IMG/VR virus record: IMGVR_UViG_3300027793_002658
DNA from: an uncultured virus (IMG/VR IMGVR_UViG_3300027793_002658)
Taxonomy: Duplodnaviria > Heunggongvirae > Uroviricota > Caudoviricetes
Reading direction: 5' to 3' (one strand)
Length of the DNA stretch: 61,450 bases
Shown here: positions 17,901-61,450 of the stretch, one piece after another
Layout: every line of letters starts with the position of its first letter
Position numbering within the stretch: position 1 is the first letter of the stretch
Notes under the pieces: generated by a model
Told to the model about the DNA's origin: nothing
Seen by the model: the letters and a program-made list of their open reading frames with translations, nothing else
The model's database searches: none
Program-made: the position numbers and the translations under genes

Positions 17901-18116
17901 TAATTTAAGCGATTCTGGAACCAAGTCAGTTTTATTATGAAATAAATCTCCTAGAATTGCAACAACGGTTGTTTCTGGAGTTTTATCTATCTCTTTATAA
18001 AATTTTTCAAATACTTCACGATATTCTTCATGTCGCTTTAACAGACGAATGTGAATGTCCGCCACATGAACTATGTGAGTAAATTTTTTTACATTTGTAT
18101 TTAAATACTTTGTCAT
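14901..18116 (-). CDS. Mre11/SbcD-Rad50/SbcC fusion (gp47-gp46-like recombination nuclease-ATPase)
   Basis: DIH, GD, GNHD, FHG, GDIH phosphoesterase motifs; Walker A ANASGKS; CSFC hook; GSGLE; IDEGFG; VSH. Confidence 0.9.
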   Translation of the reverse strand: MTKYLNTNVKKFTHIVHVADIHIRLLKRHEEYREVFEKFYKEIDKTPETTVVAILGDLFHNKTDLVPESLKLASDFLKTIADKRTTILISGNHDATLNNKTRLDSLTSVVEPLNHPHLFYLKESGLFVLGNLLFNHYSVFDDYTKYIPAANIPKKLINETDSRIALFHGPVQGATTDVGYRVVSKTVSNDSFDGHDIVLLGDIHKFQRLQEHSVNYNKPVILYAGSMIQQNHGEALEKHGYVIWDIKHHEYTHVELPNDYGFFTVEIEKGKLLTDVSSMPKKVTLRAKCKETIPSEVKSLMAKMSKKHELIEITYDKINTDEEKKNIIDTTNINLISIASNVDYQNQLIKEFLLEKKREVMTEELIDQIFEINKDVNGKLEKELVPRNIRWKPKRFEFENMFSYGEGNVIDFTTLKGLIGLFAANASGKSSILSALSYCLFDKCDRAFKAVHVLNTQKMSFNCKFNFEIEGVDYFIERVGVQDKKGNVKVDVKFYQLDKDNKMIDLNGEARRNTNDVIRDYIGTYDDFLLTVLSIQNNSVGNFIDMGQADRKDLIAKFMGITVYDQLDQIAKSESKEITTLLKNYNKTDYPKLLEQRIQEIVVLKKNLETENIELDKVESKFKYENERLMEEMANIINIGNAPTNIILLESTQKKIISEKNTLAENNISIKQLVEKLKHVIDAIDIELNKFDLIKLKTNTTHYDNLNRDLQKIQNEIDKKTIEKASKKSILSSFGSNMEYDPHCSFCVKANKKHADHINKTGEEYNKIQIEIESLTLRKDNLIDDINLVSDVVEKNQKVNELIQRKSDLERKYNYANSEFLKNSTKLVQFENQLLTLEQDITLYYKQKDAIESNKNTNEKIKIIKDNINKLDSLIKTATRKISDLNGKLMLANEQKANYEEQIKNAKIWELQQHAYTYYMMAISRDGIPYNLISKALPTIESEINNILHQIVEFTVNLTTDGKNVIGHINYDGKKWPIEMGSGLEKFVLSLAIRVALINISNLPRPNFIAIDEGFGCADKENLNSMSSLLSYFRNTFDFVWVVSHLDAMKDMVDKQLEIKKERGFSKIMAV

Positions 18117-48634: not shown

Positions 48635-49408
48635 TCAACTATACGTATTGTTATCAATTTTTGTATATGTCACAGATTTTGGTTCTTTAGTTACTCCTTG
48701 TTCCAAAAATCCAAAACTATAACTATATTTTCCAATATGTGCCAGTTTAATTCGGGTATCACAATACAATTTGATTCCAGCACTTCGTATTCTATGACAA
48801 AATGCAAAATCTTCACCGATATATTCGTCATTTAATAACAATGGATAAAAATAAGGATATACTTCGTATTGCCCACCCCAAATTTTTACTCTTGTCATCT
48901 TTTCATTTTTCACAATTGCCTCATATACACTACGATGTGTATACATAAACCCAGTGGCAGCATATTTTATTTCATATAATCCGCCGCTTTCACCAAGCAA
49001 AACTTTTTTGTCAAGAAATTCAGTGGTTAATGCTGGCCAACCTTTGACACTATACGGAGCACTAACAAATGGAAGGCCCAATTTAATTACCTTTTCAACA
49101 TCATATGGCCAAAATGCTACATCCGCATCAATCCAAAACAAATGTTCGAAACCTTCGTCTAATGCATCCTGTGCCATGGCGCATCTACCTTGATCAATCG
49201 CACTAAATCCATATTTTCTACGAACTGTGTAACCAAATGATTCCAATTTTCTTAATGCTTCATCCACGGCTGGTTCGATACTATGTGCAACAGGAACCAA
49301 AATAACGACGGAATTTGGTTTAAATGATTGTGGCAAAATAGCATTAACTTTTGCTTTTTTAGACGAGCGTAACTTCTGAAATAATCCAACGATGTAATCT
49401 ATAATCAT
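48635..49408 (-). CDS. GT-A fold glycosyltransferase-like protein
   Basis: LFWIDAD, ATGFM, GEDFAFC, HIG. Confidence 0.75.
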   Translation of the reverse strand: MIIDYIVGLFQKLRSSKKAKVNAILPQSFKPNSVVILVPVAHSIEPAVDEALRKLESFGYTVRRKYGFSAIDQGRCAMAQDALDEGFEHLFWIDADVAFWPYDVEKVIKLGLPFVSAPYSVKGWPALTTEFLDKKVLLGESGGLYEIKYAATGFMYTHRSVYEAIVKNEKMTRVKIWGGQYEVYPYFYPLLLNDEYIGEDFAFCHRIRSAGIKLYCDTRIKLAHIGKYSYSFGFLEQGVTKEPKSVTYTKIDNNTYS

Positions 49409-49422
49409 AACAATAATAAGTA

Positions 49423-49911
49423 TTATACTGTTTTTGAATACTTCAAAACTTTATGTTCTCCTTCAAATTCTCTTATAACTTCTTGCTTATCAAATAGATG
49501 CTCAAATGGTGACATATAAGTATCAGCATCAAATTCTCCATTTACATGTGTAACATAAAATTCTCTGATATATGGAAGAAATAATTCATATGTCTTGGCA
49601 CCACCGATGACAATCAATTCTCCTTTGAGTTGAACGTCAAGATTGACAATACTCATTGCATTGCGATAGGTATGCGCCGAATTATAAATAACATTATAAT
49701 CATCTACGTGTTTATATGGAGTTCTCGTCAGTACAATTAAATTGCGATTTTTTAGTTTTGGTAACGTTGAAAAAGTCGTGTGTCCAACAACCAAAATTTT
49801 ATTAGTTGTAAACTCTTTAAACCATCTGAAATCATCTTTTATACTTGGCCAAGGCAATTGATTTTTTTTCCCAATTGCTCTATTTTTATCCATTGCAATA
49901 ATTGCTTTCAT
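49423..49911 (-). CDS. folA: Dihydrofolate reductase
   Basis: IG..NQLPW, D..WFK, L.NR..IVLT, IGGA..Y, DTY. Confidence 0.9.
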   Translation of the reverse strand: MKAIIAMDKNRAIGKKNQLPWPSIKDDFRWFKEFTTNKILVVGHTTFSTLPKLKNRNLIVLTRTPYKHVDDYNVIYNSAHTYRNAMSIVNLDVQLKGELIVIGGAKTYELFLPYIREFYVTHVNGEFDADTYMSPFEHLFDKQEVIREFEGEHKVLKYSKTV

Positions 49912-50021
49912 ATATCTTTAATCAAATTTTTGAAACTAGTAGTTGTTAATTTTGATGCTGTTGTGTTACTACATTTGTATTGTCACGATTTTCATTGAAT
50001 ATTATGTATTATATCTAAAAC

Positions 50022-50059
50022 AAAAAAACCGTCAACATATAAATAATGTTGACGGTTTT
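50022..50059. terminator. Intrinsic terminator closing the tRNA array
   Basis: aaaaccgtcaacat/atgttgacggtttt inverted repeat with A/T tracts. Confidence 0.75.
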
Positions 50060-50067
50060 AAATAAAT

Positions 50068-50159
50068 TGGCGGATAGAACAGGATTCGAACCTGTGGTAC
50101 GCTTTTAAACGTACAGAAGTTTAGCAAACTTCCGCTTTCGGCCACTCAGCCATCTATCC
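50068..50159 (-). tRNA. tRNA-Ser(GCT)
   Basis: Cloverleaf, long variable arm, encoded CCA. Confidence 0.9.
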
Positions 50160-50161
50160 AT

Positions 50162-50365
50162 TAGCTGTAAATTAATAGTTTGTTTTGACCTTGCAGCATT
50201 GACGCTTTTGACGCCCCATTCGGTTCGTGCTGCTACCATAGCACTGTTTCAGTCGTACCACTTTTCTTGATTTTCCTTGCATTCAAGCAATTACTTTTTA
50301 ATATCAAGGCAACCGGCATGATCTTCAATCCGGCATTACCGTATCGGTATATCAATTTACAACTA
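50162..50365 (-). ncRNA. Unassigned ~204-nt structured RNA (possible raiA-motif relative)
   Basis: 14-bp terminal helix with two G-U pairs; several internal hairpins; no credible ORF. Confidence 0.55.
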
Positions 50366-50370
50366 TAAAT

Positions 50371-50460
50371 TGGAGGAAAGAGAGGGATTCGAACCCCCGG
50401 AGGCTTTTAGACCCCTACGGTTTTCAAGACCATCGCCTTAAACCACTCAGCCATCTTTCC
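50371..50460 (-). tRNA. tRNA-Ser(TGA)
   Basis: Cloverleaf, long variable arm, CCA. Confidence 0.9.
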
Positions 50461-50478
50461 AATATTTTAAAAGAACAA

Positions 50479-50679
50479 TTATACGTCTTCTTCTGGTACA
50501 ATTTTATCTGCTTTCAAACTCAAATCGCCACCCGCTTCTTCTACCACAGCTTTGATTTCACTTTCAAGCTCTTTGATTTTTTCTTTGTAACCAGCGGCTA
50601 CATCCTTAAAATCTTTTTTGGTGAAGATTAATTTTTCCGTCAATTCGTAAACCTTTTTTTCTGCTTCTGCTTTTGTCAT
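50479..50679 (-). CDS. Small coiled-coil protein
   Basis: ORF from MTKAEAE. Confidence 0.6.
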   Translation of the reverse strand: MTKAEAEKKVYELTEKLIFTKKDFKDVAAGYKEKIKELESEIKAVVEEAGGDLSLKADKIVPEEDV

Positions 50680-50696
50680 ATGACAATACATAGTTG

Positions 50697-51020
50697 TTAC
50701 ATTGTCAATTCATTTGATTTTTTTACAGCAATTTCATATGACGAATTTATTAATTTATACAAATCATTTGGATACATTCCATCCACACCATTTGTTTTAT
50801 TAAATATATGATATTGCTCTGCTTCAAGATGATGAAGTGAGCATAACGTTATACCATTTTCTATTACATAGCCTCCATTTGGCATTTCATGTCTATCTGT
50901 AATATGATGTGCATCAAGATTTTCAGTCGATCCACAAATTTTGCACCGATTCTTATCTCGCGCAAATACATTTTTTGAGAAATTCTTGCGCCATTCCTTA
51001 TGTGCTTGTTTCTTGCTCAT
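50697..51020 (-). CDS. HNH endonuclease-like protein
   Basis: RD..RCKICG...LDAHHI...NGITLC..HH. Confidence 0.8.
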   Translation of the reverse strand: MSKKQAHKEWRKNFSKNVFARDKNRCKICGSTENLDAHHITDRHEMPNGGYVIENGITLCSLHHLEAEQYHIFNKTNGVDGMYPNDLYKLINSSYEIAVKKSNELTM

Positions 51021-51201
51021 CTTTTTTAATTTGTTTATATATTGCATCTGCTTCTTCTAAATAAAGATCTTGTTCGCATCTGGCCCATTCTTCCGCCGAC
51101 ATTCCATTTCCATAATATCCATGAAATTCAGCATGCATTTTCCAACCTTCTGCATATTTTTTTGCCAAATTATATGCAATATTTGTAATAACTTTATTCA
51201 T
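50998..51201 (-). CDS. Hypothetical protein
   Basis: ORF. Confidence 0.55.
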   Translation of the reverse strand: MNKVITNIAYNLAKKYAEGWKMHAEFHGYYGNGMSAEEWARCEQDLYLEEADAIYKQIKKDEQETST

Positions 51202-51213
51202 ATTTTACTAAAT

Positions 51214-51597
51214 TGGTGGACGTGGAGGAAGTTGAATCCTCGTCTTTAACATTTTACCCATACCAGACTACATGTTTATTCATTTTGAATTTATTCGTGG
51301 CAATTCTAATAAATGAAAAACAAAATTGCCCTTAAGATTGCTCAATGTTCAACAATACAACACAATCCGATTATATCGTTTACTCTGATAAATGGCGTTT
51401 ACATCAGTATCAGATATTCTGATATAAACGGGCTACCAGTAAATTAGGCAGCAACAGCGACTTCATCATAGTTGAAGTCATATGCAATTACATTGTCTTC
51501 TGCATTTAGGTTTTTAATGGATTTTTTTAGGAAGCCAACCATCATCTTCCACATGCCTAGCATGACTAGTATATTAAATCGAAACCAGTACACGCCC
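51214..51597 (-). ncRNA. ssrA: tmRNA
   Basis: 5' GGGCGUGUACUGGUUUCGA; G3-U acceptor stem; T-arm and ACCA end; tag AEDNVIAYDFNYDEVAVAA* at 51503-51444. Confidence 0.92.
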
Positions 51598-51603
51598 GTA
51601 AAA

Positions 51604-51792
51604 TTATATTTCTGTATTAATAGATTGTGCTTTTTCAGCATCAAAATTTTTTAATGCCTGATAAACTTCTTTCAGACACGAATACTCACTTTGATCCATA
51701 CCCGGCATCACACTAACTCTTAAGTTAGAGTAATTTTTTTCTTTACAAATTTTGTTTAATTGGTGTTTATACCAGTCATTGCTTTTTTTCAT
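51604..51792 (-). CDS. Hypothetical protein
   Basis: ORF from MKKSNDW, ATGA overlap. Confidence 0.5.
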   Translation of the reverse strand: MKKSNDWYKHQLNKICKEKNYSNLRVSVMPGMDQSEYSCLKEVYQALKNFDAEKAQSINTEI

Positions 51793-52529
51793 ATTATTGA
51801 TTCCTCTAATACTTGGCCACAACTTTCTCGTAAAACAAGTGCGGCAAACTTATCAAACGCAGTAGGAGTATTGTTGATAATTACCAACTTGCATTGTGGA
51901 TTACGATCCAACAACAAATTGCATGCTGGCATAACCTGTAAACTACTGCCAATTGCAATCAATAAATCACATTCAGCAATTGCTTTTTGTGCCGTCTCAA
52001 AAACAACATCATCCAACCATTCATCAAACAATACCGTGTTTGGTCGAATAGTTCCAAATGTACAAATTGGACACTTAGGAATTCCTTTGTCATTGAATAA
52101 ACCAAGATATTGAGAAATATCAAATGTATATTTACATCCATTGGTACATCTAAAAGATTTACAAGTGCCATGTAATTCTAAAACTTTCTTAGAACCAGCT
52201 TTTACATGTAATCCATCAATATTTTGAGTAACAACAGCTTTTAATTTTCCTTGCTCTTCTAATTTTGCAAGAGCAAAATGCGCTCTATTTGGTTCCTTAT
52301 CAACCAATTTTAACAACCGTTCCTTGTAAAATAACGATAACAATGCTGGATCTTTTCTAAGAGTACGACGAGAAAGAATATCTTCAGGTTCCATTCCTTC
52401 AAATGGTCCGCTTGTATACAGCCCACCAACACTACGAAAATCAGGAATTCCACTTTCGGTGCTAATTCCCGCCCCCGTAAATGCAACGATATTTGTTGCA
52501 TTATCAATATAACTTTTTAATGTATTCAT
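51789..52529 (-). CDS. Sir2/CobB-family NAD-dependent deacylase
   Basis: TGAGISTESGIPDFR, TQNIDGLH, HG, two CxxC-like pairs, GSSL.V.P; upstream ORF extension is the tRNA. Confidence 0.92.
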   Translation of the reverse strand: MNTLKSYIDNATNIVAFTGAGISTESGIPDFRSVGGLYTSGPFEGMEPEDILSRRTLRKDPALLSLFYKERLLKLVDKEPNRAHFALAKLEEQGKLKAVVTQNIDGLHVKAGSKKVLELHGTCKSFRCTNGCKYTFDISQYLGLFNDKGIPKCPICTFGTIRPNTVLFDEWLDDVVFETAQKAIAECDLLIAIGSSLQVMPACNLLLDRNPQCKLVIINNTPTAFDKFAALVLRESCGQVLEESII

Positions 52530-52534
52530 AAAAT

Positions 52535-52608
52535 TGGCAGGGGATGAAGGAATCGAACCTTCACTAAGAGATCCAAAGTCTCCTGCACTACCATTATGCA
52601 AATCCCCA
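52535..52608 (-). tRNA. tRNA-Gln(TTG)
   Basis: Cloverleaf, CCA. Confidence 0.85.
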
Positions 52609-52621
52609 GTTAAAATTAACC

Positions 52622-52710
52622 TAACACAAACCGTGCTATTATACGCTAAAAAGCAATGCGGCACATGCGCCCAAACCCTTATGAAATACTTCTTTCGGGT
52701 GTTTGTGTTG
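52622..52710 (-). ncRNA. Unassigned ~90-nt stem-closed RNA
   Basis: aacacaaac/gtttgtgtt terminal helix, two internal hairpins. Confidence 0.4.
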
Positions 52711-52713
52711 AAA

Positions 52714-52987
52714 TTGACACTCGCCGTAGCCGATGTTCTGTTCTATTCCTACATTTATCTCAATATTTCTATTGGCAATCTGTTAAAGATTGCTGCTCCA
52801 ACCTTGTCCTGATAACGTGCAGCACTACACTCGGACACTTTAGGATTACTGCTAATTTGTGGTATTAACGTGCGGTATGTCGTCGTATAACGCTTGAGCG
52901 CATCAAACGAAAGCACTCCCAATCATCTGCTGTGCAGCATCGAACTTCCTCTAAGATATAATCTCAGCGTAGGATCGCTTGTGTCAA
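52714..52987 (-). ncRNA. rnpB: Phage-encoded reduced RNase P RNA
   Basis: P1, P2, P3; GAGGAAGUUCGAUG / ACAGAACAUCGGCUAC P4; P5 GCUGC/GCAGC; P18 with GAAA loop; AGAUAAAUG J18/2. Confidence 0.85.
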
Positions 52988-52990
52988 AAT

Positions 52991-53065
52991 TGGCTGCTCT
53001 TGATGGAATTGAACCACCATTCTCTCGTTCAAAGCGAGTAGTAATAGCCATTATACTAAAGAGCA
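52991..53065 (-). tRNA. tRNA-Gln(TTG)
   Basis: Cloverleaf, CCA. Confidence 0.8.
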
Positions 53066-53074
53066 ATATTAAAA

Positions 53075-53150
53075 TGGTGCCAGAATTTGGATTTGAACCA
53101 CGACAAAAAGATTCAAAGTCTTTTGTGCTAAACCGTTACACCATCGGGCA
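53075..53150 (-). tRNA. Degenerate tRNA-Gln(TTG)
   Basis: Good D and anticodon arms; mismatched T-stem and acceptor. Confidence 0.55.
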
Positions 53151-53159
53151 ATTAAAAAA

Positions 53160-53453
53160 TCAGTCGTATTCCGCTTCTTCATATCCATTTTCTTTTAGAT
53201 ATTTTTCTATCTTTTTACATAAAGCTTTACTAAGCTTTTTTTGAAAATCTAATGATATAAATTCCGAATCATATGTTGCTTGAAATTTTTTCATGAAAAC
53301 ACGCGGCAACTGTTCTGGAAACTCAAACGATGAATCACTCCAATCATGATGATAAATAACATTTTTATTTTCATCAAGAACAACTAAAATTTCTCCAGCT
53401 ATATTTATAGCATCGTGATCGCACGTATTATTTAAATAATAAAATTTTTTCAT
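53160..53453 (-). CDS. Hypothetical protein
   Basis: 97-aa ORF between tRNAs. Confidence 0.6.
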   Translation of the reverse strand: MKKFYYLNNTCDHDAINIAGEILVVLDENKNVIYHHDWSDSSFEFPEQLPRVFMKKFQATYDSEFISLDFQKKLSKALCKKIEKYLKENGYEEAEYD

Positions 53454-53460
53454 AAAAATT

Positions 53461-53545
53461 TGGTGCCAGCGATTGGATTTGAACCAATGATTCCATTGTT
53501 TGGATTGCTGTTAATACCTTTATGATCTAGATATATTTCACTGGC
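53461..53545 (-). ncRNA. tRNA-like chimera (acceptor plus T-arm plus CCA; D/anticodon region replaced by an ACAGCAA segment)
   Basis: GCCAGUG/CGCUGGC-A-CCA; AUUGG-UUCAAAU-CCAAU; no anticodon arm. Confidence 0.55.
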
Positions 53546-53554
53546 ATTATAAAT

Positions 53555-53629
53555 TGGAGCGCGGAATGGGACTTGAACCCACAACAATTTGCTTGGAAGG
53601 CAAATACTCTGCCATTGAGCTACCCGCGC
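53555..53629 (-). tRNA. tRNA-Gly(TCC)
   Basis: Cloverleaf, UCCA end. Confidence 0.85.
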
Positions 53630-53639
53630 ATTTTAAATT

Positions 53640-53714
53640 TGGAGCGTCATGTCGGAATCGAATCGACTTGTTCAACTTGGAAGGATGATGCCTAATCCAA
53701 TCGGCCAATGACGC
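53640..53714 (-). tRNA. tRNA-Gly(TCC)
   Basis: Cloverleaf, UCCA end. Confidence 0.8.
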
Positions 53715-53720
53715 ATAAAT

Positions 53721-53814
53721 AGGTGAGACAAAAAATCATTTGTCTGCTGGATTAGCTCCCCAGCTTATATTAGTTTTACAACTAATCATAGCTAATAGTG
53801 TTTTATTTTCACCT
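53721..53814 (-). ncRNA. Unassigned ~94-nt stem-closed RNA
   Basis: aggtga/tcacct ends; AUUAGUU-GUAA-AACUAAU and GCUGG/CCAGC hairpins. Confidence 0.4.
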
Positions 53815-53820
53815 TTAAAG

Positions 53821-53919
53821 TGGCGGATGATGTCCGTACTGCCCGGACCTTCGACATTCATATAGAAGCGAATTTAGTTTTCAAGACTAACGAGGCCAGC
53901 TTATATCCCCCTATCATCC
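53821..53919 (-). tRNA. Atypical tRNA-Ser(TGA)
   Basis: Perfect acceptor, G73, CCA, long variable arm; T-loop GGCAGUA and non-canonical D-arm. Confidence 0.65.
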
Positions 53920-54037
53920 ATGTCAATTAAAATCGTTACAAAAGCTCACTAGTGGAATTAATGTCATCGCCAATACAATTGTAACTAGTTCTTTAGTTTA
54001 ATATACAACGTCTTATATATCGTTTCAAGAACGAAAA

Positions 54038-54127
54038 TGGCGGAAGTTGAGGGAATTGCACCCCCACCGGTTTTACCCGGCACTGTTTAGCAAACAGTTC
54101 TGACAACCTAATATTCAGCTAACTTCC
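54038..54127 (-). tRNA. tRNA-Ser(GCT)
   Basis: Long variable arm, T-loop UGCAAUU, CCA. Confidence 0.8.
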
Positions 54128-54132
54128 AGAAA

Positions 54133-54210
54133 TGGTGGACACAGAGGGGATTCGAACCCCTAATATTCTCATTGCAAGTGAGATGCATTGCCAATTGATG
54201 CTACTGGCCC
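54133..54210 (-). tRNA. tRNA-Ala(TGC)
   Basis: G3-U70; one-nt bulge in acceptor; CCA. Confidence 0.8.
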
Positions 54211-54220
54211 ATTTTAAAAT

Positions 54221-54306
54221 TGGTAGGTGTGGTAGGATTCGAACCTACAAGGACTTCTCGTTTTAAGCAAGATGTTTCTTCCAATTTCACTTTCGTCCAC
54301 ACACCC
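54221..54306 (-). tRNA. Atypical tRNA-Leu(TAA)
   Basis: Expanded D region, short variable loop, CCA. Confidence 0.7.
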
Positions 54307-54320
54307 ATTATTAAATTAAC

Positions 54321-54372
54321 AAGATACATTTGTTTATTTTTGCTAAATAATTTTTGTTGCTGTATGTATCTT
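54321..54372 (-). ncRNA. CAGCAA-motif stem RNA (copy 1)
   Basis: AAGAUACAU-ACAGCAA...AUGUAUCUU. Confidence 0.6.
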
Positions 54373-54377
54373 AAAAT

Positions 54378-54462
54378 TGGTAGTCATGACCCGATTCGAA
54401 CGTGCAAAGGATATGATATTTTGAGTATCACGGTTGTTCCAGTTTCCCTTATCCACATGACC
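54378..54462 (-). tRNA. Atypical tRNA-Leu(CAA)
   Basis: Expanded D region, short variable loop, CCA. Confidence 0.7.
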
Positions 54463-54485
54463 ATTATCCACATGACCATTATCCA
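54449..54485. repeat. 15-bp tandem duplication of the tRNA-Leu 5' end
   Basis: ttatccacatgacca x2 plus ttatcca. Confidence 0.85.
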
Positions 54486-54488
54486 AAT

Positions 54489-54656
54489 TTACGTTTTTAG
54501 TACTTTGAGTACGAGTTTTGCTTTTTTTAATTTTTCTTGAGTTGCCGCAAACTCTTCGGCACCAACATTACGTTTGAAGTTTGCACTATTCAATTTTCTT
54601 TCTAGAAACTTGATATAAAGTTCTTCGTGTGCAATACGTTCTTTATTTGTTTTCAT
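54489..54656 (-). CDS. Small basic protein (55 aa, not in ORF track)
   Basis: MKTNKERIAHEELYIKFLERKLNSANFKRNVGAEEFAATQEKLKKAKLVLKVLKT*. Confidence 0.6.
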   Translation of the reverse strand: MKTNKERIAHEELYIKFLERKLNSANFKRNVGAEEFAATQEKLKKAKLVLKVLKT

Positions 54657-54702
54657 AATGTTGCGGTTTTATTTGAAGGATAACCGCAAACCTTATGCTA
54701 AG

Positions 54703-55077
54703 TTACTTTACTTCAATATACTTTGTTTTTGCTTCCGGCGTTTTCGGCACCGTCAACTTTAACACGCCGTCTTCTAGTTTAGACTCGATTTTATCGAAAT
54801 CGACATAAGGCAATGCAAACTCTCTCACATAACTTGCTCTTGCATTTTTTGCAGATACCTTAATTACACCCTTAGTGACTTCAACTTTAATTTCGTCACG
54901 TTTGAAGCGGGGCAACTCAATTTCAATCGTATATTGAGATTCAGTTTCCGCAAAATCAGTTGGTCTCCAATTGCGACTCAATTGAAATGATGGTTCTTTC
55001 CAGAAGTCATCATGCAATCTATCAAACAACTGAAATATATCTGTCATTCCACTGCCATATCTTTGAATATTATTCAT
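54703..55077 (-). CDS. Small heat-shock protein (Hsp20)
   Basis: ELPRF...IKVEV; REFALP; LEDGVLKLTVPK. Confidence 0.9.
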   Translation of the reverse strand: MNNIQRYGSGMTDIFQLFDRLHDDFWKEPSFQLSRNWRPTDFAETESQYTIEIELPRFKRDEIKVEVTKGVIKVSAKNARASYVREFALPYVDFDKIESKLEDGVLKLTVPKTPEAKTKYIEVK

Positions 55078-55173
55078 ATTTTTATTTCCTTTATTTATAT
55101 TTCACAAATAAAGTATTTGGATATGTTCTCTACACAAGATATTATCCAAGATAATACTTTATGTGAAAAAAGT

Positions 55174-55248
55174 TGGTGGACCTGAGCGGGATCGAACCGC
55201 TAACCTCTGAGTGCAAATCAGATGTGTTACCATTAGCACCACAAGCCC
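55174..55248 (-). tRNA. tRNA-Ala(TGC)
   Basis: Cloverleaf, G3-U70, CCA. Confidence 0.9.
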
Positions 55249-55264
55249 ATTATATAAAAATATA

Positions 55265-55518
55265 ATGTAATAAATACGGCAGGAGTTCCTGCTCCCAGCA
55301 TAATTTGCAGGTAGGCATATCTACTGAGCCATCTGCGACCAGATACGGTTTGTCTGTGATTTCGGATCTTGTAGTATTTCCCCCGACGCACGAATTTGCA
55401 GAATCTCTACTTCAGGATTTTCACCTTGCCTCAATTCTCACCATTCTACATGGTAGACCAACGGGCTCTCGCTTATGCAGTCTAATTTGGACATTAGGTG
55501 TCCCCGACATTATTACAT
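55265..55518 (-). ncRNA. Unassigned ~254-nt structured RNA
   Basis: AUGUAAUAA/UUAUUACAU terminal helix, GC-enriched, many hairpins. Confidence 0.55.
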
Positions 55519-55523
55519 AAAAA

Positions 55524-55607
55524 TGGTAGGCATGATAGGACTTGCACCTACACGGATTTCTCCATTGATTTCTAAGACCAACGCGGCTTCTTTTACGCCA
55601 CATGCCC
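55524..55607 (-). tRNA. tRNA-Leu(TAG)
   Basis: Cloverleaf, long variable arm, CCA. Confidence 0.8.
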
Positions 55608-55621
55608 ATTATTAAATTAAC

Positions 55622-55729
55622 AAGATACAACAATTTACAGTTTTGCTTCTGACCTGCATTTTTTTCATGGTCCGCAGACAAGACGATTCATTTCCTATGA
55701 TAATTTATATTTGTTGCTGTGTGTATCTT
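55622..55729 (-). ncRNA. CAGCAA-motif stem RNA (copy 2)
   Basis: AAGAUACA-CACAGCAA...UGUAUCUU. Confidence 0.6.
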
Positions 55730-55738
55730 AAAAATTAC

Positions 55739-55854
55739 GAGATGTGTTTTTATAATTTGAGTTTCAAGCTCAATGCCTTACCATTAGGCGAATTTTCCAC
55801 ACGGAAAATATTGGATTTGAACCAATAATTTATTTGTATTGCTGCGCACATCTC
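55739..55854 (-). ncRNA. CAGCAA-motif RNA enclosing a circularly permuted tRNA-Ser(UGA)
   Basis: GAGAUGUG/CACAUCUC closing stem; order T-arm, closed acceptor hairpin, D-arm, anticodon arm. Confidence 0.75.
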
Positions 55855-55860
55855 TGAAAT

Positions 55861-55938
55861 TGGTCGGCAAGACAGGATTCGAACCTGCGACCTTCTGCTC
55901 CCAAAGCAGACGCACTAGCCAAGCTGTGCTACTTGCCG
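55861..55938 (-). tRNA. tRNA-Pro(TGG)
   Basis: Canonical cloverleaf, CCA. Confidence 0.92.
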
Positions 55939-55946
55939 ATAAAAAA

Positions 55947-56022
55947 TGGTCGGGATGGAGAATTTTGCAATCTCAACCTCCTGTCTCCAAAACAGGCCGT
56001 CTACTTTTGACATTACATCCCG
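55947..56022 (-). tRNA. tRNA-Pro(TGG)
   Basis: Cloverleaf with divergent T-loop, CCA. Confidence 0.75.
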
Positions 56023-56029
56023 ATAAAAT

Positions 56030-56104
56030 TGGTAGGCGGTGAAGGATTTGAACCTCCGACAAACTGAGTGTAAGTCAGCTACTCTACCCCTGAGCTAACC
56101 GCCC
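56030..56104 (-). tRNA. tRNA-Val(TAC)
   Basis: Canonical cloverleaf, CCA. Confidence 0.9.
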
Positions 56105-56348
56105 ATTTTTTAATAAATTTAAGGATTTGTGTACCTATCGTTGGTAGCCCAATTTTCATTGAACCGGCGTCTCCGATTTCCCACGGCTCGCCTCTACGGT
56201 TTTGATTATACGCTCAAAATTTCTAAATGCGTTACTTACTATCTTCAATGTGCTAACTATCTTAGCACTGATTTCATCGTTGTCAACAGCTTTGTTGAGT
56301 TTTTTGTTTCTTACGTTTCGCTCAACCTCGCAGTCTCAACTGTGGATA

Positions 56349-56377
56349 CATCTTACACCATCCGATCCAAACGTCAA
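56349..56377 (-). promoter_or_regulatory. Possible sigma70 promoter for the tRNA array
   Basis: TTGACG-N16-TAAGAT. Confidence 0.5.
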
Positions 56378-56391
56378 CAACTTTCGCAAAC

Positions 56392-56424
56392 AAAAAACCC
56401 GTTGGTTTTTAGGCCAACGGGTTT
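56392..56424 (-). terminator. Intrinsic terminator of a putative attenuator
   Basis: AAACCCGUUGG/CCAACGGGUUU stem plus U tract. Confidence 0.75.
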
Positions 56425-56447
56425 AAACTTACGAAAATGTCCGTTGG

Positions 56448-56528
56448 TTAGCCTAGTACCAAACTAGGTTGTGACGCAGCACTAGCAAGTGCTGGCCCTA
56501 CTACGGATAATTGTACAAATGTATTCAT
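56448..56528 (-). promoter_or_regulatory. Putative 26-aa leader peptide of an attenuator
   Basis: MNTFVQLSVVGPALASAASQPSLVLG*, stop immediately followed by CCAACGG (antiterminator). Confidence 0.55.
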
Positions 56529-56576
56529 TGTAAGAATAAATATTTTCAATTTTTCGAAACGTTCATTTTTTTTTAA

Positions 56577-56729
56577 TTACTTTGCAGAGGTCTTTGCAAC
56601 AACCTTCTTGGTGACACTTGCAGTCTTAGTCTTTGCAGGTGTCTTGGCTACCGTCTTGGTTGCCTTCTTGGTAGCTGTCTTGGTTGTCTTAGTTGCCTTT
56701 GTGGTCTTTGTTGTCTTTTGTGTTGCCAT
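56577..56729 (-). CDS. Histone H1-like K/T/A-rich basic protein (50 aa, not in ORF track)
   Basis: MATQKTTKTTKATKTTKTATKKATKTVAKTPAKTKTASVTKKVVAKTSAK*. Confidence 0.7.
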   Translation of the reverse strand: MATQKTTKTTKATKTTKTATKKATKTVAKTPAKTKTASVTKKVVAKTSAK

Positions 56730-56872
56730 AACTTATTTTTTCTTTCTATTGTTTTACGATTCTTACGAATCAGATTAATCAATATATAACTGAAACTATT
56801 TTATTACATTTATTTTATTTTGGAATATTTGATATGTTTCTAAATCACATCTACATTTTCTTTTAATTTTTA

Positions 56873-57874
56873 TTAACGTATTTTTGGATTTCCGTGAATC
56901 GTAAATTTCCAATACTCGGAAAATGGACCTTCTTCGTTTTTGACGTGTTCTATATCACTTATTTCAAATCCACTTCGTTTAAGTAATTTCCAATATCGTG
57001 ATGAGCGAACTTGATTCATAGTACCTATATCTAGTGGTGCATAACGATTCACCCATTCTCCAAGTTTATGTATTAATTTTTTATAAATTTCAATTTGATT
57101 TTTTCTACCAATCACAGGAGATCTTTTAATTTGAGACTGATGTGTTGTAAATGATTGTTCTCCTGAAGTTAATGCAACTTCATGTGATCCATCTTCATTC
57201 TTTATTAGAATCATCGTATAATCACCGGCCACAATTTTATCTATAGGTTCCATTCCAATACTAGTTAAGTATTCTAATTCATCATTTACAGATTCTTCCA
57301 ATTCTTCCACTTGCTCATTCATCTGCAAAATGCCTATTGGATAGTTTGTAACAATATCATCTAATTTTTCAGCAAGCGTTGTTTTATCACTCTCCTGTAA
57401 TTTAGTACGTAAATACTCACGTAAACTTAAAAGATGTTTGCATAGACCGGGACGCAAATATGGATTCGTTGTTTTTGGAAAATTGCCATTACATTTATTT
57501 AAACTATTATTGCCCATTTCGCCTGCTTCTTTGTCGTTATTTGCGTAGGCGTATTTATACCGATAATCTTCACACGTACAATCTACTTTGCAAGGAATAT
57601 CAATGGAACTTGCACTGCTATTTTCTTTTTTAAATGTGATTCTGCCTTTGTGCCCGATACCATTTGGTTTTTCAGGACGTGGTGTAATATGACTAAGATC
57701 ACTCTTATAACTAAAATTCCAATATTCGTTTGTCGAGTCGGCGCGTATTGGCAATGATTGCGTTCTCATTTTCAATGCGCGTTTTTTTCTTTTTGGCTCA
57801 GAAAAATTCATGAGTTCTTTAAATGATAAAATCTCATTTAATACTCGTTTAGCGATGTTCGACAGCAAAATCAT
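56873..57874 (-). CDS. SWIM Zn-finger protein
   Basis: CTCEDY...PGLCKHL. Confidence 0.7.
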   Translation of the reverse strand: MILLSNIAKRVLNEILSFKELMNFSEPKRKKRALKMRTQSLPIRADSTNEYWNFSYKSDLSHITPRPEKPNGIGHKGRITFKKENSSASSIDIPCKVDCTCEDYRYKYAYANNDKEAGEMGNNSLNKCNGNFPKTTNPYLRPGLCKHLLSLREYLRTKLQESDKTTLAEKLDDIVTNYPIGILQMNEQVEELEESVNDELEYLTSIGMEPIDKIVAGDYTMILIKNEDGSHEVALTSGEQSFTTHQSQIKRSPVIGRKNQIEIYKKLIHKLGEWVNRYAPLDIGTMNQVRSSRYWKLLKRSGFEISDIEHVKNEEGPFSEYWKFTIHGNPKIR

Positions 57875-57921
57875 ACATATAAATAGTTAAAAAAACTATA
57901 ATATGTCTATTTATTAGAGTT

Positions 57922-58422
57922 ATGATTACACCAACAAGTTTTAAAATAAAAGTCAGCGGCGAGCCAAAAACCATCGACACTGTTATCGACACCGATCCTA
58001 CAAAAGATAATATTGAAAATTATACTAAAGATTTGTTTGAACCAAGAACAAACAATAGATTTTTGGTAAAAATCTTAGATGATCAAAATAATGATATTGT
58101 TCCATCTTTTTTGATTAAGGAATTTAATCGTCCAGAATTGACGAGTGCTATGGCCACGTCTTTTTCATGTATTATTTATGACAGTGTAACACAACGTGTA
58201 GTTGCATTGTTAATGCCATTTTTAATGCCGGTTTTAGAAAACAAAATTAAAGTAATTTTGCAAATTACAGATCCAATTGGCAATATTATTGAAACATGGA
58301 CATTTAAAAATGTCACATTAAAAAAGGTTTCGCCATCGTTACTCAATTGGTCCGATGATGATGTTTCTTTGATTTATGCTGAATTTAGAGTAAGCTATTC
58401 AGATATAACTATCGAAGGTTAA
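57922..58422 (+). CDS. Tail tube protein-like (T4 gp19-like)
   Basis: FEPR..NRF; DPIGNIIETWTF; LNWSDD. Confidence 0.65.
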   Translation: MITPTSFKIKVSGEPKTIDTVIDTDPTKDNIENYTKDLFEPRTNNRFLVKILDDQNNDIVPSFLIKEFNRPELTSAMATSFSCIIYDSVTQRVVALLMPFLMPVLENKIKVILQITDPIGNIIETWTFKNVTLKKVSPSLLNWSDDDVSLIYAEFRVSYSDITIEG

Positions 58423-58901
58423 ACGGGTATCTTTTTGAGCTTACTGATAGGCAGATTATAGCAATCAGCCTTAAATTTCCATTTGTACGAAGAACTTTCG
58501 TCAATGGTTCCCTTTTTGTTTAATTGAGCATGCTTATAAAAATAATCTTTACTACAGCCGCCTAGTATCCATGCTCTACTAAAATCTTCCATTATGCGAA
58601 CAAAAAAATATACGTCGCATTTTTGACGTATATTGTATGCGGCAACACTACAATAATAATGAGGTTGTGGTGGACTTGTGCAAGTTTTTGTTTTAACATC
58701 TATTTTGATATCATCTTTAATAATATCATAATCATATGTGTTTTTCGACTTGCCACCAATATATTCGTTTACCAACAATTCTCCCAAAAAACCATAAACA
58801 TTTCCCTTGCCGTCTGTAATGCTATTGTTCAGAACTCCCATTTCTTTTGATTTACGCTTGGCAACAGAAATTTGTTTTTTAGTTGGAATTACTTCGATCA
58901 T
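58419..58901 (-). CDS. Hypothetical protein, possible PD-(D/E)xK nuclease
   Basis: GFLGE...YD...IDVKTK. Confidence 0.55.
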   Translation of the reverse strand: MIEVIPTKKQISVAKRKSKEMGVLNNSITDGKGNVYGFLGELLVNEYIGGKSKNTYDYDIIKDDIKIDVKTKTCTSPPQPHYYCSVAAYNIRQKCDVYFFVRIMEDFSRAWILGGCSKDYFYKHAQLNKKGTIDESSSYKWKFKADCYNLPISKLKKIPV

Positions 58902-59009
58902 CTTTTTCCAATTCTTCTTCTAGTCTAGAATTGATTCCACAAAATCGTGCAATCAATACTGCGACAACAACATATGCACAAATTAATATTGCTCCAATTA
59001 ATACGTATT

Positions 59010-59363
59010 TCATTTCTTTTTCTTTTTAGATGACTCTTGATTCTTAATTTCACCTGCACACTGCTTGCCCAGTTCAGTTAACCCAAACTTCGGTTCTCCG
59101 TTTTCATCAACACCAGTGCATTCTAAAATACCATCTTTCACTAACTTATCAACAGTCTGCTTGACTTCCTCTAGAGCAATCATATTATAAATTTCAATAG
59201 CTTCATCTCTTGAAACTTCCTCACTGTCCATAATGAGTTGCAACGACATTTCGTATTCTCTTTGTTTAATTTGTTCTTCGCTAATATCAAACTCTAATTT
59301 TGAACAATGTTCAAGTAGTTGATCGACAGTGCCTGTGAATGTTGTGTTGATGTTTTCGTTCAT
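59010..59363 (-). CDS. Hypothetical protein (winged-helix-like C-terminus)
   Basis: Start placed at MNENI; LVKDGILE...FGLTELG. Confidence 0.6.
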   Translation of the reverse strand: MNENINTTFTGTVDQLLEHCSKLEFDISEEQIKQREYEMSLQLIMDSEEVSRDEAIEIYNMIALEEVKQTVDKLVKDGILECTGVDENGEPKFGLTELGKQCAGEIKNQESSKKKKK

Positions 59364-59371
59364 ATATAAAT

Positions 59372-59446
59372 TGGTGCGCCCAGCGAGATTCGAACTCGCA
59401 AATATAGTTTTAGAGACCACTGTTTTAACCGTTAAACTATGGACGC
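59372..59446 (-). tRNA. Amber suppressor tRNA, anticodon CUA
   Basis: GCGUCCA/UGGGCGC-A-CCA; anticodon loop CUCUAAA; T-loop UUCGAAU. Confidence 0.85.
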
Positions 59447-59686
59447 ATTAATAGTAGCTTCATTCAGATCATCAATAACGACGTTTACATTTTTGAATTT
59501 TAAACTTCCCTTGGTGTGCGAGCTATCAGGAGTTTCTTTTGTGGTCCAACCAACATTTGCATTGACATGGTTGACATAATAGGTCGTTCCTTTAGTTTTT
59601 AACACCCACATTGGGATATTATTGTCAGTCAAGTGCGCTTTGTTGAAGTGAAATACAACTTCTTTGCAATTCTATAATGTAGTCAT
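59432..59686 (-). CDS. Phage protein with in-frame TAG at codon 5
   Basis: ATG ACT ACA TTA TAG then NCKEVVFHFNK...PMWVLKTKG; AAGGA and a promoter upstream. Confidence 0.65.
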
Positions 59687-59711
59687 ATGATGTATCCTTA
59701 TTACGTCCAAT

Positions 59712-59740
59712 AGCATAGAGTCACTTTGCGTCGTTGTCAA
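59712..59740 (-). promoter_or_regulatory. Sigma70-type promoter
   Basis: TTGACA-N17-TATGCT. Confidence 0.7.
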
Positions 59741-59897
59741 TCTTTTTCTGTGCCGACACCCAATCAGGTAAATGCTTTGTAACCCATTCTACAAGCGCAG
59801 TCTCAAATCCAATATCATATTTCTTTTTTTCGCTTTCAATCCATTTGTGCTTCATTATTTCTTCACGAATTAATATAAATTTTTGATATAAAGACAT
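59721..59897 (-). CDS. DUF4032-like small protein (58 aa, not in ORF track)
   Basis: SLYQKF...REEIMKHKWIESEK...DIGFETALVEW...H. Confidence 0.7.
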   Translation of the reverse strand: MSLYQKFILIREEIMKHKWIESEKKKYDIGFETALVEWVTKHLPDWVSAQKKIDNDAK

Positions 59898-59918
59898 AGA
59901 CTTTTTATATATATAATT

Positions 59919-60140
59919 ATGAAATCGAAAATATTACTTTTAATTACAACGGCCCTTCTTTTTGGATGTGCAAATGAAAAAACCATTAGCATTGATGGTC
60001 ACACCTACACATTGGTTCGTGCAGGGCAAACAAATGCCAATGGTATTAATGATTTGGAATTATGGGAACGTAAAGGAGTCACAAATAGATACTATACTCC
60101 ATCATTGGATGGAAAATCTATGCATTCGATTATGAAATAA
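59919..60140 (+). CDS. Putative lipoprotein
   Basis: Signal peptide, LLFGC lipobox. Confidence 0.6.
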   Translation: MKSKILLLITTALLFGCANEKTISIDGHTYTLVRAGQTNANGINDLELWERKGVTNRYYTPSLDGKSMHSIMK

Positions 60141-60864
60141 TATCTGACTCGTCAATCTCTTCAAGCGCATGATAAATTATAGATTTTTTATCATCGTATT
60201 TGGTTGATAACAACTCCATTTTATACAATTTATCGCTAACACTACGTTTATTAACGTATCGTTCGTAATAATGATTGTAATACATTTCTTTATCTATTTC
60301 GTCTAAGCGACTTTCCAATTCTCCATATACAGGAGTATAGTGTGTCAGATAATGTGGTTTTGTAACTTCTTTCAACATCCATGGAAATTTAAAATAATAA
60401 TGTGGTCGAAAATATTTTGTATCGTTTTGAAATAATTTCTTTTCATTTTCGCACGAACAGTTATACAAACTGGAATGATACCACAAATATTTTTCAATTG
60501 ACTTAATTTTTTCAATATCAGATGCTCTTTTTGCTTCTGTATAATAAAATTCGAAACGTGGATCTGTTGCTGATTTCAAGTGTGCGTGTTTCTCGAAACA
60601 CGTTTTTTTAGTGTGCGTAATAAAATCTTTTTTGGGATGATACGCTTTGTTTTGCCCAAGAAAATTTATTACTTCCAAAATTTTTGGATAATCACGACGT
60701 TGCTTAACATCATCACGCAATTCCAAACTACGAACATAACCGTGATGTATTGGCGTATCCAGTTTAATTGGAACAATATTATATTTTTGTCGGTATAATA
60801 TATCTGCTTCGCGCATCAACGCCAACGCTCGCTTTTTCTCTTTTTCTTTTTTATGTAGGTCCAT
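60130..60864 (-). CDS. Hypothetical protein
   Basis: 244-aa ORF. Confidence 0.65.
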   Translation of the reverse strand: MDLHKKEKEKKRALALMREADILYRQKYNIVPIKLDTPIHHGYVRSLELRDDVKQRRDYPKILEVINFLGQNKAYHPKKDFITHTKKTCFEKHAHLKSATDPRFEFYYTEAKRASDIEKIKSIEKYLWYHSSLYNCSCENEKKLFQNDTKYFRPHYYFKFPWMLKEVTKPHYLTHYTPVYGELESRLDEIDKEMYYNHYYERYVNKRSVSDKLYKMELLSTKYDDKKSIIYHALEEIDESDIIS

Positions 60865-60866
60865 AA

Positions 60867-61121
60867 TTAGTCATTTTTAACAACAGATGAAAAATTACTT
60901 AATTCAACTGTTTTTGGTTCTTTATTAATTGTTTCTACATGCTTTCGTATATATCTCAAAAACAATAATGCTTTGTCCTCGGCCAATAAGGTTGCTTTTC
61001 CAATATCCGCAAGCGGCACTGGAAATTCAAATCCACATTCAGTGGAATAAATAAACTCTCCCTCACGAAAATATACAAATTTAACTCGCTTGTTGTCACT
61101 GACCATGTTTTTGATGTTCAT
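60867..61121 (-). CDS. Conserved-looking small phage protein
   Basis: GFEFPVP..D.G.AT.LAEDKA..F.RYIRKH; promoter TTGACA-N16-TATATT at 61128-61155. Confidence 0.65.
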   Translation of the reverse strand: MNIKNMVSDNKRVKFVYFREGEFIYSTECGFEFPVPLADIGKATLLAEDKALLFLRYIRKHVETINKEPKTVELSNFSSVVKND

Positions 61122-61158
61122 ATGTTTAATATATCAGATTTTTGTTGTGTGTCAATAT

Positions 61159-61191
61159 AAAAAAAAGACGATATCATAATGATATCGTCTT
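61159..61191 (-). terminator. Intrinsic terminator
   Basis: aagacgatatca/tgatatcgtctt plus U tract. Confidence 0.7.
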
Positions 61192-61198
61192 GATAAAT

Positions 61199-61272
61199 TG
61201 GTGGTTCTCCAAGGAATTGAGCCTTGTTCTATACAATGTCAATGTATTATTCTACCGTTAAACTAGAGAACC
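61199..61272 (-). tRNA. tRNA-Val(GAC)
   Basis: Cloverleaf, CCA. Confidence 0.8.
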
Positions 61273-61276
61273 ATTA

Positions 61277-61390
61277 GAAGGATTTCACGACGAGCTAATT
61301 AGACTCAACAACAACATTTTAATTTTGTCTTTCGTTCCACATTAACACGTTAACCAAAGGGAATCGAACCCCCGTGATGTGTCTTTCTTC
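61277..61390 (-). ncRNA. Candidate tRNA-mimic RNA with T-arm near its 5' end
   Basis: GGGG-UUCGAUU-CCCU followed by a GUUAA/UUAAU hairpin; UCACG/CGUGA closing pairs. Confidence 0.4.
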
Positions 61391-61395
61391 AAAAT

Positions 61396-61450
61396 TGGAG
61401 CACCGTGTTGGATTTGAACCAACGATTTTAGAGTTTTGCAGACTCTTGCC
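61396..61450 (-). tRNA. tRNA-Cys(GCA), 5' part outside the window
   Basis: Anticodon loop CUGCAAA, T-arm, UCCA. Confidence 0.8.

Follow-up and report, generated by a model that had tools for sequence, protein, structure and literature searches.

The stretch of DNA analysed here, referred to as the window, comprises 61,450 nt of an uncultured virus of the class Caudoviricetes (IMG/VR record IMGVR_UViG_3300027793_002658). Its GC content is 32%, and genes for gp25, PhoH, thymidylate synthase, dihydrofolate reductase (DHFR) and Hsp20 mark it as a T4-like myovirus. The subject of this analysis is a short gene on the minus strand, designated gene X (its product, X), whose reading frame is interrupted by an amber codon (TAG) shortly after the start, together with the tRNA gene with anticodon CUA, tRNA(CUA), that overlaps its 3′ end. 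The comparisons described below suggest, at a probability of roughly 0.7, that X is a suppressor-gated gene that forms a two-part phage module with tRNA(CUA).

Organization of the locus

The promoter-like hexamers, the Shine-Dalgarno (SD)-like motif, the start region and the open frame ending in NASIV that an earlier sequence-only reading had described were all present in the window (Table 1). Gene X begins ATG ACT ACA TTA TAG, with the ATG at 59686-59684 and the promoter-like site, a putative promoter, ~26 nt 5′ of it. Both hexamers and their 17-nt spacing are kept in three related loci (L005, L006 and L008) in which the letters of the spacer have diverged, and in a fourth (L007) TTGACA is found with TAAGAT. 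After the TAG the frame continues as AAT TGC AAA GAA GTT GTA TTT CAC TTC AAC AAA, remains open for 79 further codons, and ends with GCG TCC ATA GTT TAA, the stop occupying 59434-59432. The 5′ end of tRNA(CUA) is GCGTCCATAGTTTAACGG, such that the last four codons of gene X and its TAA are, as had been claimed, the first 15 nt of a well-formed tRNA identified by both ARAGORN and Rfam; the stop codon is formed by tRNA positions 13-15 (T-A-A). A scan of the window revealed neither a terminator-like site nor a convincing internal promoter between gene X and the tRNA. Since no terminator-like site intervenes, and since the tRNA abuts the gene in both of the arrangements described below, we infer that gene X and tRNA(CUA) share one transcript.

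Table 1. Features of the gene X-tRNA(CUA) locus and its surroundings in the window.
Feature	Position	Strand	Basis or remark
Promoter-like site, sigma-70-type: TTGACA 59740-59735, 17-nt spacer, TATGCT 59717-59712	59712..59740	(-)	Consensus scan, 10/12 matches
AAGGA, Shine-Dalgarno-like, 8 nt before ATG	59695..59699	(-)	
Gene X, short form, 84 codons including TAG: MTTL-TAG-NCKEVVFHFNK...NASIV	59432..59686	(-)	Translation, single internal TAG
In-frame amber, gene X codon 5	59672..59674	(-)	Next base A at 59671
TTG, first alternative start after TAG, 14 codons downstream	59630..59632	(-)	
Amber suppressor-type tRNA, anticodon CUA at 59413-59411	59372..59446	(-)	ARAGORN; Rfam RF00005
Open reading frame-tRNA overlap, 15 nt: last four codons and TAA of gene X = tRNA nt 1-15	59432..59446	(-)	
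Next open reading frame, 117 aa, beginning 8 nt past tRNA CCA	59010..59363	(-)	No family
Phage transfer-messenger RNA gene, tag AEDNVIAYDFNYDEVAVAA	51214-51597	(-)	ARAGORN; Rfam 124.7 bits; context only

The early amber codon in related loci

Searches for X identified 131 relatives of similar length and 442 longer ones, and an exhaustive profile search gave 160 clusters at 50% identity. The short form, represented in the window, consists of the N-domain alone, and the long form (~185 aa) of the N-domain followed by a ferredoxin-like C-domain and a strongly acidic tail. Loci surrounding these relatives were collected from 16 viral sequences and from the best 80 of the 442 metagenome relatives, giving 96 related loci, of which three run off the 5′ end and 93 could be scored. 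This sample is not biased toward the TAG, because the matches used to retrieve the loci begin after its position.

In 84 of the 93 scorable loci an in-frame ATG is followed by one to six codons, a TAG and then the conserved N-terminus, typically IEYACKDVVFHFNK. The early stop in these 84 loci is always TAG and never TAA or TGA. When the 80 unique related contexts were considered, an SD-like motif was found 5′ of the in-frame ATG in 70, and the TAG was codon 3 in 58. On a tree of 83 unique N-domains, 80 rows could be scored; 70 of these carry the TAG, and such rows occur in each of the two major groups. The rows lacking it are scattered, requiring seven changes by parsimony, at least three of which are forced by well-supported branches. 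The position of the TAG is kept in relatives down to ~60% identity, and its conservation is far beyond chance. The identical codon is also present in four viral contigs (L001-L004), and contigs from three RNA-library runs and one DNA run show no differing letter over gene X, the tRNA and the promoter-like site, the sole listed difference of the run contigs along the stretch being a C>T at 59091 in one run.

The remaining nine loci comprise eight with a plain ATG start and one (L047:1489-1727) that lacks the early TAG and carries instead an in-frame TAG at codon 20 (GAT TAG AAT), where many homologues have CAG; its open reading frame (ORF) is otherwise intact, and a tRNA(CUA) with G73 is located 1.3 kb upstream of X. 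The codon-20 TAG hints at either insertion of glutamine or tolerance of TAG at any position. In another of the related loci (L022:1019-1484), X has no TAG, and the ORF immediately following its tRNA(CUA) is a different one of 111 aa, in which AGGAG, ATG, five codons and TAG-A precede KVCSCKD, a sequence resembling the X N-terminus IEYACKD. The gate has seemingly been captured by an inserted gene in this single case, which has no homologues among the related loci.

Coding constraint after the amber codon

Evidence that the frame is translated through the TAG was sought in the pattern of variation downstream of it. For the nine codons after the TAG in the commonest class (53 unique segments), the entropies at codon positions 1, 2 and 3 were 0.47, 0.46 and 0.99, in agreement with 0.39, 0.25 and 1.07 for the next twelve codons. 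The Cys and Asp codons following the TAG vary at the third base only and are invariant at the protein level. The sequence-only reading had asked whether the VFHFNK segment is conserved in homologues, and its FHFNK motif proved to be nearly invariant; a start at the TTG at 59632 would cost X both this motif and its first beta strand. Furthermore, in 23 of the 80 unique contexts, those of the window's clade among them, the interval from the TAG to FHFN contains no ATG, GTG or TTG.

Among 71 unique contexts, the base following the TAG (+4) was A 66 times, G 3 times and C 2 times, and T did not occur. Amber suppression is favoured by purines at this position, SupE gaining tenfold from a C to A change (PMC6266110), and +4U lowers read-through (PMC5289835). 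The residues flanking the TAG are otherwise variable, and homologues lacking the TAG begin M(T)ELACKD, so any inserted amino acid should be tolerated; that the inserted residue cannot be read from the sequence, as had been noted at the outset, is agreed. The Q found in P0002 and in similar database proteins was not counted as evidence for glutamine and is probably a code-15 gene call, because an RNA-run contig equal in length to the contig of P0002 (1133 nt) carries TAG.

Taken together, these data strongly support the proposal, made at first from the window alone, that full-length X requires amber read-through and does not begin at the downstream TTG: the arrangement of SD, ATG, one to six codons and TAG is conserved, the sequence after the TAG shows coding-type conservation, and tRNA(CUA) is linked to the gene and in one case, described below, has been lost together with it.

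Identity of tRNA(CUA)

The tRNA of the window scores 65.7 bits against Rfam RF00005 (gathering score 29), indicating a canonical cloverleaf. It has the pairs G1-C72, C2-G71 and G3-C70, discriminator A73, an encoded CCA and the anticodon loop C-U-CUA-A-A. The tRNA(CUA) genes of 42 related loci represent 34 unique sequences, which are homologous to one another and likewise fold into canonical cloverleaves; they share the same three acceptor pairs, and most copies have A73, a few having G73 instead. Comparison with 110 other tRNAs of the loci did not single out an isotype, Arg, Gly and others tying at ~0.6 identity.

The pyrrolysine tRNA PylT also has the anticodon CUA and is characterized by a short D loop without GG, a 3-nt variable loop and a 6-bp anticodon stem. 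In the tRNA examined here the D loop is 8 nt long and contains GG, the variable loop has 4 nt, the anticodon stem has 5 bp and the T loop, of standard form, contains GTTCGAATC, and an identity as tRNA-Pyl was ruled out; the tRNA-Pyl label applied by ARAGORN, and in GenBank to the corresponding gene of Rhizobium phage RHph_I1_18, is the programs' default for CUA. No pylS or pylBCD family was found in Pfam scans of 62 ORFs (8 + 54) of the 61-kb window. In one related locus (L084:1345-1359) a short-form X ending in YASVA terminates inside a tRNA-like gene to which ARAGORN assigns the abnormal two-base anticodon 'ct'; this is probably a tRNA(CUA) that overlaps the gene and has an unusual anticodon loop.

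Linkage of gene X to tRNA(CUA)

A tRNA(CUA) on the same strand was present within the 1.5-3 kb flanks of X in 42 of the 93 scorable loci, often as the only tRNA there. As to whether TAG and tRNA(CUA) co-occur in relatives, the tRNA was found beside 37 of the 84 loci with an early TAG, and the short flanks of the other 47 yielded none. It was also found beside 5 of the 9 remaining loci. Two arrangements recur, with the tRNA 58-1300 nt upstream of X in the long form and just downstream of X in the short form. No conserved protein neighbours were identified across the related loci.

The converse search, in which 80 viral loci were fetched by a tRNA(CUA)-type pattern, yielded 61 with a called tRNA(CUA); of the 80, 12 hold X within 2.5 kb, and the TAG was at codon 3 in 8 of these 12 and absent from 4. 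Suppressor tRNAs are therefore commoner than X. The presence of X beside the tRNA even after loss of the TAG suggests a functional partnership that extends beyond decoding. A single natural co-loss of the tRNA and an intact X was observed (L008:2987-3320): about 40 nt of the 5′ half of tRNA(CUA) are deleted, and X has a TGG to TAA change together with changes at conserved residues.

Gene X in cultured phages and features of its product

A nucleotide search of cultured phages with the locus returned only two short, weak matches, and tblastn identified four records. One is that of Rhizobium phage RHph_I1_18 (MN988519.1; L097:2470-2814), a T4-like phage that infects the standard-code bacterium Rhizobium phaseoli. 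This record has no annotation for gene X, apparently due to the TAG; the gene is preceded by AGAGGAAAGG and 9 bases before beginning ATG AGT GAG TTC ATG TAG AAC GAA TCG TGC AGG GAA GTT ATC TTC CAC TTC AAC AAA; the annotated tRNA-Pyl(cta) lies 33 nt past its stop. In the jumbo phages Atu_ph07 of Agrobacterium (L098:1549-2728) and Phosso of Sinorhizobium (L099:1549-2728), the X domain forms the C-terminal half of a protein of 173-176 aa that has no TAG and is encoded last in an overlapping set of three genes, namely a peptidyl-tRNA hydrolase of the PTH2 family (PF01981, E 2e-16), an unknown gene and X. A single pattern tried for tRNA(CUA) in these two phages gave one match, which was not called a tRNA by ARAGORN. 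One metagenomic cluster (P0273) has PTH2 and the X domain in a single fusion protein, the match to PF01981 scoring 32 bits (cut-off 23). This fusion and the operon are the only functional lead for X. Because X stays by tRNA(CUA) after loss of the TAG and is joined to PTH2 in these cases, a tRNA- or ribosome-associated role can be suggested, with low confidence.

Neither the short nor the long form matched a Pfam or PHROGs family. The search with the longer proteins, which returned the 442 relatives, gave no informative domain, and the ESM Atlas yielded only an unnamed viral cluster. The AlphaFold2 model of X has a predicted local distance difference test score (pLDDT) of 94.5 and is all-beta; its first strand spans residues 2-14, and the model indicates a new beta-barrel domain. 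Foldseek searches against the PDB returned nothing at E ≤ 0.001 with either model. A wide search of the N-domain with VIA-align had a best Z of 3.6 and included PriB, SSB, RPA, LEF-3 and Stn1 at Z 2.5-3.3, a weak OB-fold-like resemblance, and the C-domain gave generic ferredoxin-like ACT/RRM matches at Z 5-7. A profile search of PDB sequences produced a marginal WW match (NEDD4L, E 7e-4 over 18 residues, with a G-x-TYYVNH...W motif), WW profiles being marked by a G-x-x-Y-Y-x-N-H core and two Trp some 20 residues apart; Pfam gave no hit, and the model is a larger barrel-like domain.

Use of TAG elsewhere in these genomes

ORFs of up to 1455 codons in the window are open under translation table 11, and the window yielded no further convincing in-frame TAG, either early or internal. 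TAG terminates 3 of 82 crude ORFs in the window, 56 of 270 in G002 and 26 of 255 in RHph_I1_18; the latter two genomes are complete (186 kb with terminal repeats and 171 kb, respectively) and encode one tRNA(CUA) each. Across 74 loci, the gain in ORF cover on treating TAG as sense (0.108) was close to that for TGA (0.105), and crude scans of the loci did not show TAG-containing ORFs to be enriched over controls. The best additional in-frame-TAG candidate was rejected because it lies antisense to a tail sheath gene. By these crude scans X appears to be the sole gene with such a codon, and the code to be otherwise standard. The only two credible TAG-ending genes in the window are adjacent glycosyltransferases of families 6 and 8, overlapping by 13 nt (4221-5647), both of which a working suppressor would extend.

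The overlap, transfer-messenger RNA and neighbouring genes

The 15-nt overlap between gene X and tRNA(CUA) occurs, besides the window, in 11 of the 96 loci (L001-L007, L009, L010, L017 and L018), all belonging to one short-form clade. Their C-terminal codons differ, the encoded ends being ASIV, ASVV, ASVA, AAVA and APIV. Other short forms have the tRNA 33-53 nt downstream of X.

The presence of a transfer-messenger RNA (tmRNA) gene in the window, to which the sequence-only reading had drawn attention, was confirmed (Table 1), and G002 and RHph_I1_18 also carry tmRNA genes. The search for tmRNA in relatives covered RF00023; standard tmRNA above the cut-off of this family was found in none of five other large X-bearing contigs, two of them complete, and in two of five tRNA(CUA) contigs without X nearby, so that tmRNA shows no consistent association with X in relatives.

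The 117-aa ORF beyond the tRNA is kept in 9 loci of the window's clade. No terminator-like site was found between it and the tRNA in the scan of the window, and it is therefore probably on the same transcript as tRNA(CUA). The surrounding region (49000-61450) is a dense tRNA array in which Rfam finds 16 tRNAs and the tmRNA (17 matches in all), including two tRNAs not reported by ARAGORN, at 55729-55798 and, truncated, at 61399-61450. Three copies of tRNA-Gln(UUG), two of Gly(UCC) and two of Ala(UGC) are present, and small ORFs, among them Hsp20 (54703-55077) and HNH (50697-51047), are found among the tRNAs. Elsewhere in the window, a single ORF of 1071 aa (14901-18116) combines a calcineurin-like phosphoesterase with AAA_23 and looks like a fused SbcD/SbcC (gp47/gp46-like) nuclease.

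Discussion

The anatomy of the locus, the conservation of the amber codon, the coding constraint after it, the linkage to tRNA(CUA) and the standard code elsewhere lead us to propose that gene X is gated by suppression. Ribosomes would initiate at the AUG and meet the UAG at codon 5, or at codon 3 in most relatives. There, in cells where the phage tRNA(CUA) had not been made, processed and charged, termination by release factor 1 would leave a tiny peptide. In the presence of the charged tRNA the whole beta-barrel protein would be synthesized, and X output would track the ratio of suppression to termination, making the early TAG an amber gate or sensor whose failure would cost just a di- to hexapeptide. 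X might then cooperate with the suppressor system or act upon it, the simplest case being feedback that bounds suppression. That X feeds back in this way is speculative, and a self-tuning cassette, in which X is a tRNA- or ribosome-binding factor made only in proportion to read-through and acts back on the suppressor, release factor 1 or peptidyl-tRNA turnover, is put forward only tentatively, as something we would expect to be wrong rather oftener than right.

Several observations weigh against gating by the suppressor. In 55 of the 80 unique contexts the Val codon before FHFNK is GTG, which outnumbers the other three Val codons combined, and gene callers start the protein there; phages bearing this GTG may make a shorter isoform without suppression. 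The TAG is absent from 8 of the 93 loci, from four more loci of the reverse search and from the jumbo-phage fusions, so the gate is dispensable. The 47 TAG-bearing loci without tRNA(CUA) in their short flanks belong here as well, as does G003, a 21-kb fragment in which no tRNA(CUA) was found; in such cases the tRNA may be located elsewhere in the genome. The link to PTH2 consists of one fusion cluster and two related jumbo phages, Foldseek and VIA searches gave no clear homologue of X, and the search for other in-frame TAGs used crude ORF statistics rather than ortholog alignments. Finally, we infer from sequence that tRNA(CUA) is charged and reads the UAG of X and that full-length X is made; the locus is covered by contigs from RNA libraries, yet transcription, transcript ends and strand cannot be read from contigs, and contig breaks near the tRNA occur also in the DNA run.

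The TAG might instead be a true stop that closes a mini-ORF of 2-6 codons, with re-initiation at the GTG, or at the TTG in the window, giving a shorter X to which tRNA(CUA) is unrelated. The frequency of that GTG favours such a scheme, as do the many database entries that start there or at the Met of PMW, and an SD, an AUG, a few codons and a stop recall the lambda bar minigenes. Nevertheless, this explanation is improbable. The contexts with no start codon between the TAG and FHFN include the window's own clade, where the only candidate, the TTG, would delete FHFNK and the first strand; the third base of the Val codon ahead of FHFNK is free to vary; and the segment between the TAG and FHFNK shows wobble-type variation, with Cys and Asp invariant as protein. 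The stop, moreover, is always TAG, and the cognate tRNA is linked to it in 42 of 93 loci. A nonsense mutation, a pseudogene or a sequencing error has nothing in its favour beyond the fact that a stop codon is there, and is virtually untenable: the sequence-only reading had named a base-call error and a private nonsense mutation as its own possible undoing, and both are refuted by the same TAG in four viral contigs and in contigs of four runs and by its retention, at a position kept to ~60% identity and ahead of an intact frame, in 84 of 93 loci.

That the phage is partly TAG-recoded, as code-15 phages are, with X as one of many affected genes, is rated lower still than re-initiation. Phage suppressor tRNAs usually accompany recoding, and the scarcity of TAG terminators in the 32% GC window (3 of 82 ORFs) resembles a state proposed as a step toward it (10.1101/2021.08.26.457843). 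Against this, long ORFs are intact under table 11 with no other convincing TAG in the window, the ORF cover gained with TAG hardly differs from that with TGA, and TAG is an ordinary terminator in G002 and RHph_I1_18. A further alternative concerns the overlap clade, in which ribosomes reading through the TAG of gene X could unfold the 5′ strand of the pre-tRNA and thereby lower the level of suppressor, and cleavage by RNase P would leave a non-stop X mRNA subject to tmRNA tagging. The sequence-only reading had offered these ideas for the window; as general mechanisms they fail, because the tRNA is upstream of X in most relatives and tmRNA is found in none of the five other large contigs. For the overlap clade they are logically possible: the overlap is real and is kept in 11 loci that differ at their C-terminal codons, there is neither a terminator-like site nor a convincing internal promoter between gene X and the tRNA, and the window, G002 and RHph_I1_18 each encode a tmRNA. 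They are nonetheless unlikely, if less so than re-initiation, since the overlap is confined to one short-form clade, the long-form majority having the tRNA upstream and other short forms having it separated from X, and the RF00023 result applies here too. Because the stop falls on tRNA positions 13-15 (T-A-A), this overlap may be only a by-product of a tRNA sitting where the long-form C-terminal domain would be.

Suppressor gating of gene X can be compared with several known systems. The release factor 2 gene prfB contains an early in-frame UGA that is escaped by +1 frameshifting, and its product reads that stop. In both cases an early conserved in-frame stop ties output to the balance between termination and alternative decoding; unlike in prfB, the frame of X is unchanged and escape is predicted to occur by a suppressor tRNA. 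The lambda bar minigenes combine a strong SD, an AUG, one or a few codons and a stop, and are linked to the biology of peptidyl-tRNA hydrolase. X shares the SD-AUG-stop arrangement and the link to peptidyl-tRNA hydrolase, while a conserved ORF after the stop and a stop that is always UAG are found here only.

In code-15 phages (crAss-like, Lak and other gut phages) TAG is read as sense (PMC7886860; 10.1101/2021.08.26.457843). They resemble the phages considered here in having a phage tRNA(CUA), a standard-code host and in-frame TAGs in phage genes, where the stop may delay or gate expression. Their genomes, in contrast, contain tens to hundreds of in-frame TAGs, most of which are located in late genes, and TAG is avoided for termination, whereas here the code is standard and one gene carries one TAG at a fixed codon 2-7, with the tRNA physically linked. 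Stenotrophomonas phage Summit likewise has a lone suppressor tRNA and the standard code, and its authors state that no targets were identified (PMC9022506); a conserved, linked target is identified here only. No description of gene X or of the module was found in the literature, and the supplementary tables of recoding papers might list such phages.

Phage suppressor tRNAs are known mainly from wholesale-recoded genomes, and lone ones in standard-code phages are usually unexplained. The present analysis names a specific conserved target for a lone suppressor, across T4-like and huge phages and including a cultured Rhizobium phage, and describes a new protein domain tied to peptidyl-tRNA hydrolase that gene callers would truncate or omit on account of the TAG. 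If the proposal is correct, gene X is a natural example of suppressor-tRNA-gated expression, open to direct test, with a sensor or feedback logic like that of release factor 2 being suggested. A self-tuning cassette, if that is what the module proves to be, would allow T4-like and jumbo phages that use the standard code to harbour a suppressor tRNA that is otherwise dangerous, and would be nature's equivalent of the amber-gated circuits built by engineering. It could also be a first step to a change of code, and the module may thus mark an early stage toward stop-codon reassignment.

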